In this document: positions 1,996 to 9,573 of the stretch, in pieces
Numbering within the stretch: the stretch's first letter is position 1
How the letters are laid out: every line of letters begins with the position of its first letter
Assembly: GCA_964291265.2 (NCBI GenBank)
Contig: OZ219747.1
Span: forward strand, 3,680,001 to 3,744,000
DNA from: Alphaproteobacteria bacterium
GTDB lineage: Bacteria; Pseudomonadota; Alphaproteobacteria; SP197
DNA length: 64,000 nucleotides
Reading direction: 5' to 3'
Position numbers and translations under genes: made by a program
The notes under the pieces: model-generated
The model's input: only the letters and a program-made list of their open reading frames with translations
Databases searched by the model: none
Told to the model about the DNA's origin: nothing

Positions 1996-3655
1996 ATGAC
2001 CCTTTGCTGTGCGCTTTACGCCTGCAATTCGTCCGACCAGCAGCGGTCGGCCTCCATCGAGGACCAGTTCCGGGCCTGCCGCGAGCACGCGGAGCGCGAG
2101 GGCTGGAAGATCGTCGGCACGTACCGGGACTCCGCCATCTCGGGAGACAGCGTGATCCTCCGGCCCGGCGTCCAGGCGCTTCTGGAGGACGCGCGGCGAG
2201 GCGCGTTCGAGATCGTCGTCGCCGAGGCCCTCGACCGGATCAGCCGCGACCAGACCGATGTTGCGACCCTCTACAAGCATCTGCGCTTCGCCGGCGTGAC
2301 GATCTTCACGCTCGCGGCGGGCGAAGGCGAGATCAACGAGCTTCACGTCGGCCTCAAGGGGACCATGAACGCGCTCTTCCTGAAGGACCTCGCGGCGAAG
2401 ACGCACCGGAGGCTCCGGGGCCGCGTCGAGGTCGGCAAGTCGGGCGGCGGCATCTGCTGCGGCTATGACGTGGTGAAGCTGCACGACGAGGCCGGCGAGC
2501 GCATCCGGGGCGAGCGGGAGATCAACGAGGCCGAGGCGGAGATCGTCCGGCGCATCTTCCGCGAGTTCGCCGCCGACACCGCCCGCGCGCCATCGCGCGG
2601 CGCCTCGACGACGAGGGCATCCCCGGCGCCAAGGGCAGGCTCTGGAGCGACTCCGTCCTGCGCGGCCACGCCAGGCGCGGTACCGGGCTGCTCAACAACG
2701 AGCTCTATATCGGCCGGCTGGTGTGGAACCGCCAGCGCTTCCTGAAGAACCCGGACACCGGCAAGCGGGTCTGCGCGCGTCAACCCGCCCGAGGAATGGA
2801 TAATCGCCGAGGTTCCGGAGCTCCGCATCGTCGACGACGCGCTGTGGCAGGACGCCAAGGCCCGGCAGGAAGAGCTTGCCGAGAAATACGCCACCGCCAT
2901 CGCGGCGACGCGGAACGCCCACGCCAACCGCATGAAGGCCGCCCACCGGCCGCGTTATCTGCTCTCCGGGCTGCTCGAATGCGGCGTCTGCGGCGGCCCC
3001 TATTCCATGCGCGGACAGGGCCGCTACGGCTGCTCTAACCACGTCGTGACGGGCTCGTGCGCCAACAGCCGGACCATCCGGCGCGTCGAGATCGAGGAGC
3101 GGGTGCTGGCGGGGCTGAAGGACAAGCTGATGGAGCCCGAAGCCGCCGCCGAAGCGATGAAAGCGTATGCCGAAGAGACCAACCGGCTCAACCGCGAGCG
3201 CCGCGCGTCGGGCGCGAGCGACCGCGCGGAGCTGGCCGGGATCGAGAAGAAGATCGCGTCGATGCTCGACGCCATTGAGGAGGGTGGCTACGTGCGGGGT
3301 ATGTCCGACCGGCTCCGCGAGCTGGAGGCCCGCCAGGACGAGATCAACGAACGGCTGTCAGCCGCTCCGGTCGACATCCCGGACGTTCACCCCAACATTG
3401 CCGGCGTCTACCGCCGCAAGGTGGAGCGGCTCGCGGAGGCGCTGGCCGATCCCCGCGACCGCGACCAGGCGACGGAAGCCATAAGGGGGCTGATCGAGCG
3501 GATCGTGCTGACCCCCCGGCGCGAAGCGTGACGAGTTGCACGCCGCGCTCCATGGCGACCTCGGCACCATCCTCGAATGGGCCGGGAGCGGCAGGGCGAA
3601 GGGAGCGACCGACATCCTGCGAGGCGGAATGTCGGTCTCGGTGGTAGCGGGGGAA
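1996..3655 (+). pseudogene. Large serine recombinase (resolvase + recombinase + Zn ribbon), frameshifted
   Basis: ALYACNSSDQQ..SIEDQ, EALDRISRD, YLLSGLLECGVCGG, ERIVLTP, LHGDLGTIL..SVVAG spread over ORFs 1945-2745, 2721-3038, 2932-3531, 3536-3787. Confidence 0.85.
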
Positions 3656-4401
3656 CACTTCCACCGACACTGGACAGCCGTCCCGATCGCACAGAAGGCC
3701 GAACTCGATCTGCAGCTTGCCCTTCTTGCCATCCCGGGAATGACCCCTCCTCGCCAGGGGGCACGCTCTCCCCTCCATCCACACTGAAGTCAGGTCATGG
3801 AGCACCAGGCAGCCCTCTTCGAGGCGCCGCTTCGCCAGGGACCGCTCGATCCTCTCCTGACGCTCCAGGAGCCAGTCCATGGCGCCGTAGAGGGCGTCCT
3901 CGTCCATCTCCGCATCGAGGACCTCGCCCAGGGTGCTGACCGCTGTGGCCAGCTTCGAAGCGGGCTCGAGGATGCGTGCCACGATCATGGCCAGGACCTG
4001 ATCGCGCTCAGGCGAGGGCTTCGGGTCGATCAACCTGTCCAGTCCCAGCTTCTTCAGGGTTCCCAGCACCGCGGCGACATGCCCGTGGGGAAGGGAGCGG
4101 ACGATGTCGAAGGCATCGTCGAGATGTCGGACTGCTGTTCCTCCCTTGAGGAGGATGCGCAATCCCTCGACGAGAGTGGGGGACCACTTGGAGAGGTTGG
4201 CGATGGTGCGCTTCTTGACCTTTCCGTTTTCGTGATAGGACTCGCGGAGCAGGATGGCGGGCGGCGAGGAGCGGTTGGGGACGGCTTCGATGTACGTGGC
4301 CACCGTACATGGGTACGTTGTGAGGCCCGATAAATCCAGCAAACCGCGCAATATCAATGAGTTGACGCGACTGTCAGCTGGAAAGCGTGCGGAACTTCGG
4401 G
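3650..4401 (-). mobile_element. IS1634-family element, 5' remnant (start codon ACG, truncated)
   Basis: YIEAVPNRSSPPAILLRESY..KRTIANLS..LVLHDLTSVWMEG..GHSRDGKKGKLQIEFGLLCD; terminus CCCGAAGTTCC (minus strand) at 4401-4391. Confidence 0.8.
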
Positions 4402-4415
4402 CTCATCGTAACTAC

Positions 4416-5894
4416 TCACCCCTTGTTAGGGTCTGGTTGTCCGTAGTGCTCGTTGAGGATGTCTACGGCCTTTCCGTCGAGGGCGATGTGGATGGCGACG
4501 TGAGGGTTGTAGCCGAGTGCGTCCATGGTGGTGAGGTAGCTTGAGCCTCGGCACCATGCTTTGGCGTGGGGCATGGTGCGGAAACATCCGGACACCTTGA
4601 TCTTGACCTTTGTCATCCTGATCTTCTGCTCTCCGGTATTGTTGGTGAAACTGACGTTGGGGTCCTTCATGAAGCGCAGGACGGACTTCTCGTGTTTCAC
4701 GAGACGTTCATGCAGGTTGTGCGCGTCGGACTTTGCGATGCGTCCCCGTTTTCCCTTCGTCCGTGGCGGGATGTCGGGCAGTTCCTTGGCGCCCTGGGTG
4801 AGGATGGTGCGGTAGCGCTTGCGCACGGCCCGGCGGTCGGCCTCGTTCAAGGTCTTGGATGCGCTCTTGTTGACCCTGCGGGAGACCTCGCGCAGTAGGC
4901 TTTTCATCAGTCGCGCCCAGCGGTAGCCGTTGGACTCGACGACGAAGGTCAGTTCGCGCAGGAGATGGCTGCCGCACAGTTGGTGGCGGCATTGATCGTA
5001 GCCCATGTAGGCAGCCCAGCAGTCGTGGATCAGGACGCCCTTGTAGCGCGGGATGATGCCGATCTCTTCGATCGCCTCCCGGCCGCGCTTGGGGTGCGGG
5101 AACTTGCACGTCAGGGTGCCGTCGGTGACGACATGGAGCCATTGGGTCTTGCCGGCGACCCGGAAGCCGGTCTCGTCGACATGCAGGGCCGGTTGTTGCA
5201 GGAGATGGGCCACGGCGGCCTCCTCCCATGATGCGAGGGCATCGTGAAAGCGCCGGACATAGCCGAGACAGGTCGCCTCGGAGAGCTTGATGCCGGAGAT
5301 CGCGTGCACGAGCGAGACGGCACGACGCAGGGACAGCATCTGGGCGATCAGCAGGTTGATGACGAGGGCCTGGATGCTGACGCCGTACTGCAGGGGCCCC
5401 GGCATGTTGTCTGGGAACCGGCCCTTGGTCCGGGCCCGGCACTTCGGGCATTCCTTGATCTCGGCTTCGACGCGGTGCTCGACGACTTCGAACACGATGT
5501 CGTAGAGGACGCGGCACTCCCGGTCGACGGGGTCGACATCGTGGAGGTCGGCGCCGCAGGCGTCGCAGGCATCGACGGTGATCGTCTCCTCGATGGTGGT
5601 CGTGCGCAGGTTGTCGCCCGTCTGCTGGTTCGGTTTCGGGCCCTTGCCGTTGCTCCCGGTGCGCCTCGCGCTCTCGTCCTTGTCAGTCTGAGATGGCGGC
5701 AGACCGGAGTTCCGGCTCGTCTTACGTGTGATCTTCTCCATGAGCACGGTCAGCAACAGCTTTATCAGCATCAGCATGCCGCGGATGAGCTCCTCGCACT
5801 CCTGGTTGACCTTGCCTTGCTTGCGGAGATCCTGGAACTGCTTCTGGAAGACGTCGGCCTCCTGGCGCACAGACGTGCCGTTCACGCTCGCCAT
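4416..5894 (-). CDS. IS66 transposase (TnpC-like, ISBst12-type without TnpA/B)
   Basis: TSRNSGLPPS, CDACG..CPKC zinc finger, LHVDETG, LIHDCWAAY, HQLCGSHLLREL, FTNNTGEQKIR..KIKVSGCFR. Confidence 0.9.
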   Translation of the reverse strand: MASVNGTSVRQEADVFQKQFQDLRKQGKVNQECEELIRGMLMLIKLLLTVLMEKITRKTSRNSGLPPSQTDKDESARRTGSNGKGPKPNQQTGDNLRTTTIEETITVDACDACGADLHDVDPVDRECRVLYDIVFEVVEHRVEAEIKECPKCRARTKGRFPDNMPGPLQYGVSIQALVINLLIAQMLSLRRAVSLVHAISGIKLSEATCLGYVRRFHDALASWEEAAVAHLLQQPALHVDETGFRVAGKTQWLHVVTDGTLTCKFPHPKRGREAIEEIGIIPRYKGVLIHDCWAAYMGYDQCRHQLCGSHLLRELTFVVESNGYRWARLMKSLLREVSRRVNKSASKTLNEADRRAVRKRYRTILTQGAKELPDIPPRTKGKRGRIAKSDAHNLHERLVKHEKSVLRFMKDPNVSFTNNTGEQKIRMTKVKIKVSGCFRTMPHAKAWCRGSSYLTTMDALGYNPHVAIHIALDGKAVDILNEHYGQPDPNKG

Positions 5895-6556
5895 GACGAC
5901 GCCTCCACCGCCATGACAGCCGCCAGCACGGCGAGCCGCTCGCCTTCGGGCATCGTCCGGTAGCGCCGCGCCCAGCTCTCTGCGAGGCGCTTGATGCGCT
6001 GGCGGTCGATCGAGTTCCTGCCCGTATACGTATGCCAGTGCGGCCGGCCCGGTGCGAAGTTGAACCACAGCTTCTCGGTGACAACGCAGGCCTGGTTGTT
6101 GACCTGGACCTCGGCCGTGCGCCAGCCGGCGAGGTGCGTGTCGTAGAGCCGCGAGGGATAGCCGGAGATCATCACCTGGCAGGGCAGCGACGTCAGGATG
6201 TCGAGGAGCGCAACATGGTCGTCGTCCGTGCAGTCGAAGCGGTAGCGGCGCTGCGACCGGCGCGTCGACTGCACGTAAGGCGGGTCGCAGTAGACCAGCT
6301 CGCGGCCCTGGAAGGCGAAGGTCTCGAGAAAACGCAGGGCGCAGCCTTGGTGAAGCTCCACCGGATAGTCACAGCGGAAGCTGTCGATCGCCCGGCGGTT
6401 GAGGTCAATGCCGATGCTGCGTAGCGCCGGAGGCTTGCGCTTCATGATCGCGCCGCCCCCAAGGAACGCCTCGATGTACACGTCATGCGGCGGCATGGCC
6501 GCGACGATCGCCTGGCTCAGACCCGTCGTCGCCTTCGATCCATACCATGCCGCCAT
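5882..6556 (-). CDS. D12-class (Dam-like) N6-adenine DNA methyltransferase
   Basis: WYGSK, YIEAFLGGGA (motif I), YCDPPY (motif IV), VMISGY; GGAGA RBS; 3' end overlaps transposase start by 13 nt. Confidence 0.85.
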   Translation of the reverse strand: MAAWYGSKATTGLSQAIVAAMPPHDVYIEAFLGGGAIMKRKPPALRSIGIDLNRRAIDSFRCDYPVELHQGCALRFLETFAFQGRELVYCDPPYVQSTRRSQRRYRFDCTDDDHVALLDILTSLPCQVMISGYPSRLYDTHLAGWRTAEVQVNNQACVVTEKLWFNFAPGRPHWHTYTGRNSIDRQRIKRLAESWARRYRTMPEGERLAVLAAVMAVEASSWRA

Positions 6557-7154
6557 CAATATCTCCGACGCAAACCGCCCCGATGGCCTGCATGTAGAGC
6601 GCCCCTCCTACAATGTCAAGCGCATATCTCCAGAGGATTGGAAAGGCAGCCAACGGAACCCGCCCCACCGGACAGAACGGTTGACACGCAACCTCGGCGC
6701 GGGGTGCCGGATCACGTCGCAGCCCCCTCCCCATAAGGCCGGAACGTGGAGCTGAAGCCGAAGATCGATCCGCTTCTTGTCAGTCGGAACACGCACATCC
6801 GATCATCGGCAGCGAGCCAGTGAAGGCGGCAAGAGAAAATGCCGGATCCGAACCCGTCAAGAAAAACCATTCGTCATCAGTAGGGGGGTGAGTAGTTACG
6901 GCTCATCTTCAAAGGCGATTCCCCTAGCCCCGGGAATGGCGGATTTCAGGCACGGCCGCCGCCCGGATCGGTCAGATCGGAGGCTTTTTCCCGCAACAGG
7001 CAAATATGTTACATATAGCGCAATGATCCGTTGGGAGACGGCCATGGCCCCAGCATCCACCAGCGCGCAGCGCGCCGAGAAGCGCAGGGCGGCCCTCAGA
7101 GCACAGGGACTGCGGCCAATATAGATCTGGGTTCCCGATACCCGCGCCCCCGGT

Positions 7155-9573
7155 CTGCCCATCGGACACATTTCGCGCTCGACTCGCTGATTCCTTTGCG
7201 CTATGGTCGGGCGCATGGACGACCCTGTTTCGATTCCGAGCGCGCTTTCCTCGCCACAAGGCATGGCGAAGTTGTCGCGGATTCTGGCGCAGCCGGAGGT
7301 CTCACGTGCCGAGATCGGCCGCAGGGTATGCGACGCTTTCGGCTTTGTTGACTTTCGCGGGCGACCGCAGGTCACGAGTTGCCTTTGTTGCCCTTCGCCG
7401 TCTTGAGCGGGCGGGCAGGATCGTTCTTCCTTCGCCCCGCCGTGGCGGCGGCCGGGGTGCCGTGGCTCGCAGGGAGGTGGCGGTTGCCGAGCCTGTGGGT
7501 CTTCCGGCGAGCGCCGGTGCGGCCTGAGGGCCTTGAGCTTGTCCGGGTCGAGGGATCGGAGCTTCGGCTGATCTTCAACGAGCTGATGGCGTCGGAGCAT
7601 CCGCGCAGCGCCCGTCTTCACGTCGGCCGTCAGCTGCGCTACCTGATCGGATCGTCGCATGGCTGGCTCGGCGGGTTCCTGTTTGCTCCGGCGACGCGGG
7701 TCCTGGCGGCGCGGGATGCCTGGCTTGGCTGGGACGATGCGAGCCGCGAGCGGCATCTCGACGAGGTGATCGGTCTGGCGCGATTCCTGATCCGTCCATC
7801 CGTCTGTGTACGTTATCTTGCGTCGCGGGTCCTGGGCATGGCGGCCCGGCGCTTAGGTGGTGACTTTGCGGCGGCCTATGGCATCCGTCCGGTTCTGGCC
7901 CTTGACCTTTGTCGCGCCGGAGTATCGGGGCAGTTGCTTCCTGGCGGCCGGCTGGCGCTGTGTCGGTGAGACCACCGGGCGCCGGCTTCGTGACGGCGTG
8001 GCGGAACCGGCGAAGCGCATCCTTCTGCTGCCGCTGGCCTCGGACTGGGACACCTGCCTGGAGGCGCGGCGCGTCCTGGCGCCCGGGGACGGCCTTGACA
8101 GCGCGGCCTGGGCAGAGAACGAATTCGGCGCCGCGCCCTCAGGAGACGCCCGCCTGACGCAGCGGCTTGTGCGCAGTGCCGAGGTTCAGGCCCGGTCACC
8201 GACGAAGACATTCTTCGCTGCGGCGGCTGGCTGCGGAGCGACGGTGAAGGGATACGACAGGATGATCGAGCATCCGGACTACGACGCGGTCTGTGCGTCC
8301 ACCATCATCGGGGGGCATCGCGAACGGACCCTGCGGCGGATGCAGGGCCAGGCGCTGTCGCTTCTGGTGCAGGACGGCACGGACCTCAACTTCGCGACCC
8401 GCCAGGGTTGCGAAGGCCTGGGGATGATCGGCTGCAACACGGGGTCTTCGGGGACGTCGGGCCTGCACCTGCACACGACCTTTGCCGTGAGCGGCGACGG
8501 GGTTCCCCTCGGCGTTGTCAACCTTGAGTTCGACGCCCCGGACGGCGGGGACGACCGGGATCGTCCGGTGGAGGAGCGCAAGACCGGACGGTGGCTGCGC
8601 GGCCTTCGCCACAGCATCGCGGCGGCGAAGGAACTGGACGGGGTGAAGGCCGTGGCGGTGATGGACCGCGAAGGGGACGCGTTCGATGTGCTCCACGAAC
8701 ACCGTGCGGCGGGCTGCCGCCGTCTGGCGCTGCTGGTGCGGGCGCGCCATGACCGCAGCTTCGGCCGCGGCCGGCCCAAGCTGTTCGAGCGTGTGCGCAC
8801 GGCGCCGGAAGGCGGACAGTTCTCCCTCACGGTGGAGCGATTGTCGGGGCGACGTTCGACAGGGGCGCAGAAGGCCTCCGTCGGGCGAGCGAGGCGCCAG
8901 GCGCAGGTGAGCCTGCGCTGGCTGACACGCGAGATCCCGCCGCCTGCACACACAAGGGCGCACTTCGGAGCGCAGCCGGTGGTGCTGACCGCGATCCATG
9001 CCGGGGAGGTGGACAGGCCCGACGACGGGTCACAACCGGTGTCGTGGACCCTGCTCACGACCCTGCCTGTCACGAGCCTGCACCAGGCCCGCGAGGTGGT
9101 GCGGCTCTACGGGTTGAGGTGGCGGATCGAGGACTGGCACAGGATCCTCAAGTCGGGCTGCAAGGTGGAGACGATCGCGCATCGTACCGGGGGACGCATC
9201 GAACGGGCCGTGGCCATCAACGCGGTGATGGCCTGGCGCATCGCCGCTCTCACCCACCTGGCGCGAACGGAACCGGAGCTTCCGGCAAGGACCGCATTCA
9301 CCGACATCGAACTGGCGCTGCTGAAAGACTTCGCGCATGTCCGCAAGCTGCCGCCGCCCGAGGATCTCTCAGCGGCATTCCGCCTCGTGGCGACGATGGG
9401 CGGATACCTGAACCGCAGCAAGGACGGCCCGCCCGGCGCGGAGATCACCTGGAACGGCCAGGCTGCGCTGTCGTTCACGGCGTGGATGCTGGGTCACAGT
9501 GTCGATGCCGGGGACGACAGCGCCGTGCGGCAACACATCAGCTAGCCAGACGGCATTTGTGGGCAATGGGCAG
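7155..9573 (+). mobile_element. IS4-family (IS50/Tn5-like) element
   Basis: Ends CTGCCCAT.. / ..ATGGGCAG; 8-bp TSD CCCCCGGT at 7147-7154 and 9574-9581. Confidence 0.9.
7204..9545 (+). pseudogene. DUF4338-fused IS4/Tn5-like transposase, about 3 frameshifts in the N-terminal part
   Basis: DUF4338 motifs GRQLRYLI..ARDAWLGW..RFLIRP..LASRVL..TFV..GSCFLAAGW; Tn5-like WAENEFG..GDARLTQRL, VQDGTDLNF, MDREGD, YGLRWRIEDWHRILKSGCKVE, GGYLNRSKDGPPG. Confidence 0.85.

Follow-up and report, generated by a model that had tools for sequence, protein, structure and literature searches.

The 64,000-nucleotide stretch analysed here (hereafter the window; positions 3,680,001 to 3,744,000 of contig OZ219747.1 in the alphaproteobacterial assembly GCA_964291265.2) belongs to a genome of 4.83 Mb, assembled in 2 contigs with 64.7% G+C. 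At window positions 4408-6899 it carries an insertion sequence (IS) of the IS66 family, 2,492 bp in length, in which a small gene resembling DNA adenine methylases directly precedes the transposase gene. The identity of this methylase-like gene, its relationship to the plasmid protein Upf31, and its probable role in the control of the transposase are the subject of the current study. The features of the element are listed below, numbered from the first nucleotide of the window.

4400..4407: left copy of the target-site duplication, GGCTCATC; the identical 8-mer lies at 6900-6907
4408..4422: terminal inverted repeat at the transposase-distal end, GTAACTACTCACCCC; 15/15 complementary to 6885-6899
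4416..5894, minus strand: IS66-family DDE transposase of the single-ORF (open reading frame) type, 492 amino acids (aa), ATG start; PF03050 E 3.2e-42 over profile positions 3-282 of 284, NF033517 253.7 bits
5882..5894, minus strand: 13 nt shared by the 3' end of the methylase-like ORF and the transposase start (ATG), from the ORF coordinates; predicted translational coupling
5882..6556, minus strand: Upf31-family protein with a Dam-like S-adenosylmethionine (SAM)-methyltransferase fold lacking the target-recognition region, 224 aa, ATG start; 43% identity to pBP136 Upf31, predicted autorepressor
6563..6566, minus strand: GGAG resembling a Shine-Dalgarno sequence, 6 nt ahead of the ATG at 6556, read from the sequence
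6594..6619, minus strand: predicted promoter and operator, TTGACA-TT-GTAG-N10-CTAC, a conserved pattern with a putative function
6619-6614, minus strand: predicted -35 hexamer TTGACA, within the invariant TTG.C columns
6611-6608 and 6597-6594, minus strand: half-sites GTAG and CTAC, 10 nt apart, within the invariant TAG and CTA columns
6596-6591, minus strand: candidate -10 hexamer TACATG, read from the sequence
6620..6884, minus strand: non-coding leader between the upstream inverted repeat and the promoter, with more variation among copies than any other part
6885..6899: terminal inverted repeat at the promoter-proximal end, the reverse complement of GTAACTACTCACCCC
6900..6907: right copy of the target-site duplication, GGCTCATC, matching 4400-4407 and the empty-site contigs

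A preliminary description of this locus had noted perfect 15-bp inverted repeats, an 8-bp target-site duplication, two uninterrupted ORFs and a 13-nt overlap, and all of these are present in the sequence. The repeat search reports 16 nt at 100%, because one flanking base pairs too, and the transposase stop codon (TGA, 4416-4418) falls inside the distal repeat. The same genome holds ten full-length copies of the element (2 of 2,492 bp and 8 of 2,456 bp) that are 96-100% identical. Their ends are identical in nine cases, with one mismatch in the remaining copy; each has its own 8-bp duplication, perfect in nine copies and with 7/8 matching in one; and both reading frames are open in all ten. With ten such copies, each having its own duplication and both frames open, the structure is far beyond chance. 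Furthermore, contigs from 2 of 3 public runs join position 4399 to position 6900 across a single GGCTCATC, a junction that omits 2,500 bases and at which the 8 letters fit both sides. No empty site was found in the own genome, where the left flank forms part of a different multi-copy IS and the right flank occurs only once, and the plasmid collection contained no DNA nearly identical to the element. It is evident that this is an intact, recently active IS66-family insertion sequence; the earlier proposal of a recent insertion, together with its suggested search for further copies and an empty site, is borne out by the ten copies and by the contigs from the public runs. Many fragments and interrupted copies are also found in the genome. 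At C1:104609-109528 of the own genome, one copy is nested in another, and its 8-bp duplication, GATCAAGG, falls at element position 1046-1053.

Differences among the copies are unevenly spread. The 328 nt of upstream non-coding sequence, leader included, hold 77 of the 141 variable alignment columns, and the leader carries a 36-bp indel (about 6655-6733), with 2,456-bp and 2,492-bp forms existing among the copies. Within the transposase gene, 28 differences are synonymous and 15 non-synonymous; the corresponding numbers for the methylase-like gene are 12 and 5, and judged by these substitutions the latter gene appears to be under purifying selection among the copies.

The IS66 family is defined by an 8-bp target duplication and by inverted repeats starting with GTAA, and its canonical members carry tnpA and tnpB upstream of tnpC, and the ISBst12 group is made up of single-ORF members. 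The element has the IS66-type DDE transposase (well above the NF033517 cut-off of 180 bits), the 8-bp duplication and the GTAA-starting repeats in common with the family. Its 492-aa transposase contains no detectable LZ or IS66_C domain. No tnpA, tnpB or endonuclease gene was found either, as had been stated previously: among the 20 other ORFs of at least 51 aa within the element, none matches Pfam at E<=0.01. The element is therefore a non-canonical member of the family, although the IS itself is otherwise ordinary. Unlike the ISBst12 group, it has a second conserved gene upstream, which occupies the position of the usual accessory genes and overlaps the transposase start, just as the preliminary description had recognized. 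A fusion of the two frames by programmed -1 frameshifting, as in IS1 and IS3, was considered and rejected, since the methylase-like frame has no X_XXY_YYZ heptamer or homopolymer run; ahead of its ATG, the transposase frame stays open over 175 nt. The methylase-like ATG is preceded, one codon earlier, by an in-frame TTG at 6559.

The 224-aa product of the upstream gene has the hallmarks of a SAM-dependent methyltransferase. Motif I (LGGGA, residues 32-36) and DPPY (residues 91-94) are both invariant in alignments A1 and A3, and E29, D51 and W195 are likewise invariant in the alignment with Upf31; among the distinct IS-borne proteins, LGGGA is found in 41/41 and DPPY in 38/41. Similarity to the Dam models is partial. 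The PF02086 (D12) match scores 33.9 (gathering score 22) and covers only residues 85-126, corresponding to profile positions 175-218 of 253, and TIGR00571 (Dam) yields 38.4 bits, below its cut-off of 114.85. Just 54 residues separate motif I from the DPPY of motif IV, so the Dam target-recognition region is missing. An AlphaFold model of the protein (pLDDT, the predicted local distance difference test, 72.2; pTM, the predicted template-modelling score, 0.69) retrieved E. coli Dam as the top 5 and as 11 of the first 13 Foldseek hits, the best being 4rtj_A (E 1.4e-7, TM 0.55), with Mcbe1 at rank 6, DpnM at rank 12 and T4 Dam at rank 33. The best folds (E. coli Dam, DpnM and T4 Dam) align at a TM of about 0.5 and 13-15% identity, 14% in the case of E. 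coli Dam. In the model, a methyltransferase core that lacks the target-recognition region of Dam leads into two helices at the C-terminus (182-198 and 204-221). The basic C-terminal extension described earlier, with its string DRQRIKRLAESWARRY, is indeed present, and this tail forms part of the two helices and is maintained throughout the family. The D12-class, alpha-type enzymes E. coli Dam, T4 Dam and DpnM have the Rossmann-type fold, motif I and DPPY in common with the element protein, but differ from it in their low sequence identity and in possessing a target-recognition region. A sequence-profile search of solved structures returned spurious TPR matches only. The family is large, with 3,573 clusters at 90% identity; its representatives at 50% identity number 6,871 at E<=1e-3, of which 556 are found at E<=1e-30. 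The database name of the relatives is 'DNA adenine methylase'.

Taken at face value, such features could describe an active orphan N6-adenine DNA methyltransferase carried as cargo, which would modify a short motif across host or vector DNA and thereby serve anti-restriction or change the methylome. The conserved motif I and DPPY, the PF02086 score above the gathering score, the closest folds and the label given to the relatives by the sources all speak for this possibility, while the absent target-recognition region and the TIGR00571 score far below its cut-off speak against it. The one homologue that has been tested is also informative in this regard. Upf31 of the IncP-1beta plasmid pBP136 aligns with the 224-aa protein end to end (BLASTP, 43% identity over 220 aa, E 4e-63), and a tblastn search against plasmids yielded 189 records, some of them IncP-1beta entries that carry the annotation upf31.0, at about 44% identity. 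Upf31 of pBP136 and R751 is likewise 224 aa long, and it shares LGGGA, DPPY, the C-terminal helices and the tryptophan equivalent to W198 with the element protein, as well as the layout of a globular N-terminal domain joined to a helical C-terminal one. In the Upf31 study (Elg et al., Mol Biol Evol 2025, PMC11997246), a dam- host supplied with Upf31 remained without GATC methylation, as judged by DpnI/MboI digestion, and the protein gave no single-molecule real-time (SMRT) kinetic signal in methylase-free E. coli. Consequently, the earlier designation of the element protein as a Dam-type enzyme with a possible effect on the methylome is not supported, given the partial match to the Dam model, the lack of a target-recognition region and the inactivity of the homologue in those published methylation tests.

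What the same source does report for Upf31 is repression. The 68-bp fragment upstream of upf31 is a promoter, and full-length Upf31 lowers its activity from 4.76 to 0.09 XylE units, or approximately 50-fold; each of the substitutions Y180A, F185A and W198A destroys this repression, and the C-terminal region is treated as a dimerisation domain (PMC11997246). In the element protein, the residue equivalent to W198 is W195, invariant in A1 and A3, and the equivalent of Y180 is also Y. A homodimer prediction with two copies of the protein and alignment A1 scored 0.21, with the mark at 0.42, and is evidence neither way.

A putative regulatory site of the same design lies upstream of the element's gene. 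The promoter-palindrome is placed 63 nt upstream of the ATG at 6556 and consists of TTGACA followed by two 4-nt half-sites separated by 10 nt. Relatives of the locus were gathered by scanning species genomes for the methylase-like gene, which yielded 486 loci; locus counts were made on the best 80 of these, which are spread over 21 assemblies with the labels Alphaproteobacteria, Gammaproteobacteria and Bryobacterales, and a single genome often contributes many copies. Among 14 diverse upstream regions, the sole invariant columns are TTG.C, TAG and CTA, and the conserved motif can be written as TTGACA-N2-RTAG-N10-CTAY. The strict pattern occurs in 38 of 51 distinct upstream regions from the best 80 of the 486 loci, at 60-66 or 83 nt from the ATG, and most of the other regions carry near variants. 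In all of 21 distinct operators compared, 10 nt separate the half-sites; the bases next to the arms are A..T in 16, G..C in 3 and C..T in 2, so that dyad symmetry is kept in 19 of 21. The upf31 promoter of pBP136 likewise has TTGACA followed by a 4-N10-4 dyad (TTGACA-GC-ATCG-N10-CGAG), that is, the same geometry with symmetric changes; the half-sites are TCG/CGA in Upf31 and TAG/CTA in the element. A homologue on an Acinetobacter plasmid has ATAG-N10-CTAT running into TATAAT. Across the whole own genome, the motif occurs 28 times, and 27 of these occurrences are upstream of a methylase-like gene or its remnant. The bare GTAG-N10-CTAC dyad is found at only 5 sites outside IS copies in 4.8 Mb, against a rough composition-based expectation of about 50, a scarcity that may reflect a general avoidance of TAG-containing words.

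The preliminary description had also suggested that the methylase could gate the transposition of its own element, as Dam does for IS10 and IS50. Self-gated transposition is plausible by way of promoter repression, whereas the Dam-like GATC route finds no footing in the sequence: there is no GATC or GANTC in the inverted repeats or in the -35/-10 region. A perfect palindrome, CGGATCCG, lies on the minus strand at 6843-6850, just inside the upstream inverted repeat, and is followed by a T-rich run; it is kept in the related elements of genome G275 described below. This palindrome was scored as terminator-like, but the count of such structures is at chance level (1 found, 1.4 expected). It could be a block to outside read-through or a protein-binding site.

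The arrangement seen in the window is part of a widely distributed module. In a set of 84 loci, comprising the best 80 of the 486 together with the window, the second lineage of the own genome (see below), G006 and G223, a DDE transposase gene lies directly downstream on the same strand in 81. These 81 transposases are of three types: 47 are canonical IS66 TnpC-like proteins (PF03050 plus IS66_C), 33 are single-ORF IS66-like proteins and 1 belongs to DDE_5. None of the 47 TnpC-like loci has tnpA/tnpB in front; in other words, the same module that precedes the window's transposase also precedes transposases of the canonical TnpC type lacking those genes. Among the best 80 loci, stop and start overlap by 4 nt in 59 cases and by 13 nt in 7, and in 14 no downstream ORF of at least 400 aa was found. 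On a maximum-likelihood tree of the methylase-like proteins, the transposase types are interleaved, with at least 3 changes on well-supported branches, from which it follows that the cassette has passed from one IS backbone to another. Proteins borne by insertion sequences group in a single clade, separate from the plasmid Upf31-type proteins (support 98/97). It is because the module sits at the same place in three transposase types that the view of the element as a 'transporter IS' with a passenger gene fits poorly: one promoter-palindrome and a 4-nt or 13-nt overlap across all three would not be expected of cargo and argue for a regulatory module, although elements deleted for the gene have still spread (see below). 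Together with the published Upf31 results, this leads us to consider an active cargo methylase decidedly improbable.

The transposase was matched in 10 of 300 other genomes of the class (E<=1e-20) and was absent from both same-genus genomes searched (G033 and G210). These two genomes are about 2.8 Mb in size, compared with 4.8 Mb for the own genome, and the difference may stem partly from massive IS expansion, or from a loose genus assignment. The methylase-like protein was detected in 2 of 400 other genomes of the phylum (E<=1e-15), and neither of these adjoins a transposase. Two distant homologues with 39-40% identity and an N-terminal extension (L132 in G412 and L133 in G614) overlap by 4 nt not with a transposase, but with a 257-aa ORF similar to Ogg-HhH glycosylases (PF22175, E 4.4e-13). 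The own genome also encodes a second IS lineage, whose methylase-like protein is 62-64% identical to that of the window, with the operator CTAG-N10-CTAT and inverted repeats starting with GTAACTGCCCAGG; examples lie outside the window at C2:1378592-1379245, 161894-162544 and 2255685-2256338. In this lineage, 4 copies have one common frameshift in the methylase-like gene.

Based upon these features, we favor, with moderate confidence, the interpretation that the methylase-like gene and its promoter constitute an autorepressor cassette, which limits transposase expression from the single promoter of the element. Presumably, the protein would bind the palindrome between the -35 and -10 hexamers, probably as a dimer via its C-terminal helices, and would thereby shut off transcription of the bicistronic operon. 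Since the transposase start overlaps the repressor stop, synthesis of transposase should depend on translation of the repressor gene and scale with it. A copy entering a naive cell would be expected to produce a burst of transposase and then to silence itself. Because such a repressor would act in trans, all of the copies within a cell would be damped together, which would amount to copy-number control.

A natural experiment on the loss of the cassette is provided by G275, the closest of the 10 transposase-matching genomes, in which the transposase is 88% identical to that of the window. Its elements, flanked by 8-bp duplications, measure 2,272-2,288 bp or exist in variant forms; of the methylase-like ORF only the last ~30 codons survive, within a short ORF that has taken its place, and the right half-site reads CTCC instead of CTAC. 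In these methylase-less forms, the transposase gene is present over its whole length at no fewer than 38 places in G275, while the full methylase-like protein occurs at only 2 places, both attached to broken transposases. The preliminary description had named close transposase relatives without the methylase as a finding that would refute its interpretation. Such relatives do exist, in that the G275 elements lack most of the gene, and this speaks in part against that interpretation, namely as far as an essential partner is concerned. The spread of the methylase-less forms in G275 implies that the gene is not needed in cis, and its loss fits a trans-acting negative regulator. The short ORF is ~78 aa from its first ATG (L092, L108, L112 and L115; element ~560-800) and still overlaps the transposase start; the ~30 residues at its end correspond to the stretch regarded as the dimerisation domain in the Upf31 study (PMC11997246). 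This short ORF could keep translational coupling, or it could act as an anti-repressor.

The G275 elements also bear upon the opposite possibility, namely that the protein is a positive transposition cofactor that replaces the IS66 proteins TnpA and TnpB, perhaps by aiding the finding of ends or targets. Such a role would be in keeping with the location of the gene in the tnpA/tnpB position, coupled to the transposase, and with its linkage to a transposase in 81 of the 84 loci. It is difficult to reconcile with the domain-less elements that have target duplications at no fewer than 38 places in G275 and encode an 88%-identical transposase, or with the frameshifted copies of the second lineage that multiplied in the own genome, even though a supply in trans from a few intact genes is possible. 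Moreover, no operator-like palindrome is visible in the inverted repeats, and plasmid homologues function without any transposase, according to the Upf31 study (PMC11997246) and the plasmid records. We therefore hold a positive cofactor to be very doubtful.

Several observations weigh against the autorepressor interpretation itself. Firstly, repression is known only from the plasmid protein, which is 43% identical, and was observed in E. coli with differing half-sites (PMC11997246); at the position of F185, furthermore, the element protein has S, although F is found in 30 of 41 distinct IS-borne proteins. Secondly, the candidate -10 hexamer TACATG is weak, and a generic sigma-70 scan did not call the site, because this hexamer lacks the final T. 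Thirdly, the genome reached ten full copies and many fragments in spite of the presumed repressor. Fourthly, G275 is a single case, and its 2 full methylase-like genes could act in trans. Lastly, the conserved LGGGA, DPPY, E29 and D51 are needless for a pure DNA-binding repressor; a part of the function is left unexplained by simple repression, as SAM-binding and DPPY residues are conserved.

It is conceivable that these residues point to a protein that is both repressor and enzyme, which would methylate only the adenines of its own operator half-sites and whose binding would be set by the methylation state after replication. Bursts of transposase would then be linked to the moment at which the replication fork passes. 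In favor of this view, the motifs for catalysis and SAM binding are both invariant, and each half-site (TAG and CTA) has a symmetrically placed adenine. The published SMRT test employed an expression vector in E. coli (PMC11997246); it might have missed a single-site enzyme, since we would hardly expect the 18-bp site to occur there. Conversely, methylation has been seen for no member of the family, there is no target-recognition region of known kind, and the model adds an extra step without direct evidence, which makes it, in our view, unlikely. A still broader scenario, which we likewise regard as rather speculative, would derive a portable promoter-operator-repressor cassette from a methyltransferase that lost its target-recognition domain, with insertion sequences of several transposase lineages taking it up in exchange for their usual accessory genes. 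Still using SAM and base flipping, the protein would place N6-methyladenine on the two adenines of its own operator, so that each element would have an epigenetic switch to itself and would release transposase only in the wake of replication or when a new cell is entered.

An autorepressor of this kind would have both parallels and distinctions among known systems. For IS10 and IS50, it is the host Dam that acts on GATC sites within the element; here, an element-encoded protein and a different site would be involved. IS1 InsA and the Tn5 inhibitor are IS-encoded repressors of transposition, and M.SsoII is a methyltransferase that represses its own promoter. Each resembles the logic proposed here, in which an element-encoded, trans-acting protein keeps expression low at its own promoter. 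The fold of InsA is nevertheless unrelated to that of the element protein, and M.SsoII is distinguished by an N-terminal helix-turn-helix extension and by shown methylation, neither of which is known for this family. The gene most closely comparable, upf31, is a stand-alone gene of the plasmid backbone that is tied to KorB regulation, whereas the element gene heads a two-gene operon with the transposase.

In the Upf31 study, upf31 is treated as largely limited to IncP-1beta plasmids, and the word 'transposase' does not appear in its main text (PMC11997246). No paper describing a Upf31-type gene in insertion sequences was found in our search, which lay outside ISfinder, REBASE and subscription reviews. 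The contribution of the window is to place two lineages side by side in one genome, to supply an empty site, and to lead to both the tree showing cassette exchange and the methylase-less expansion in G275. Few IS families are as large as IS66, whose accessory genes have no clearly established role; in the elements considered here, they are replaced by one small protein. If the autorepressor interpretation is true, many methylase annotations in genomes and plasmids would be misleading, these insertion sequences would own a simple and transferable form of copy-number control, and Upf31, so far viewed as an IncP-1beta oddity, would be a member of a widespread family of mobile-element regulators.

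The surroundings of the element form an IS-rich patch. To its left are a C-terminal fragment of a serine recombinase (Zn_ribbon_recom, 2932-3531) and, at 4108-4317, the end of another multi-copy IS, of which at least 11 copies (~97% identical) exist. On the right, a Tn5/IS4-like transposase gene is located at 7857-9545, and housekeeping genes follow from about 11.6 kb.

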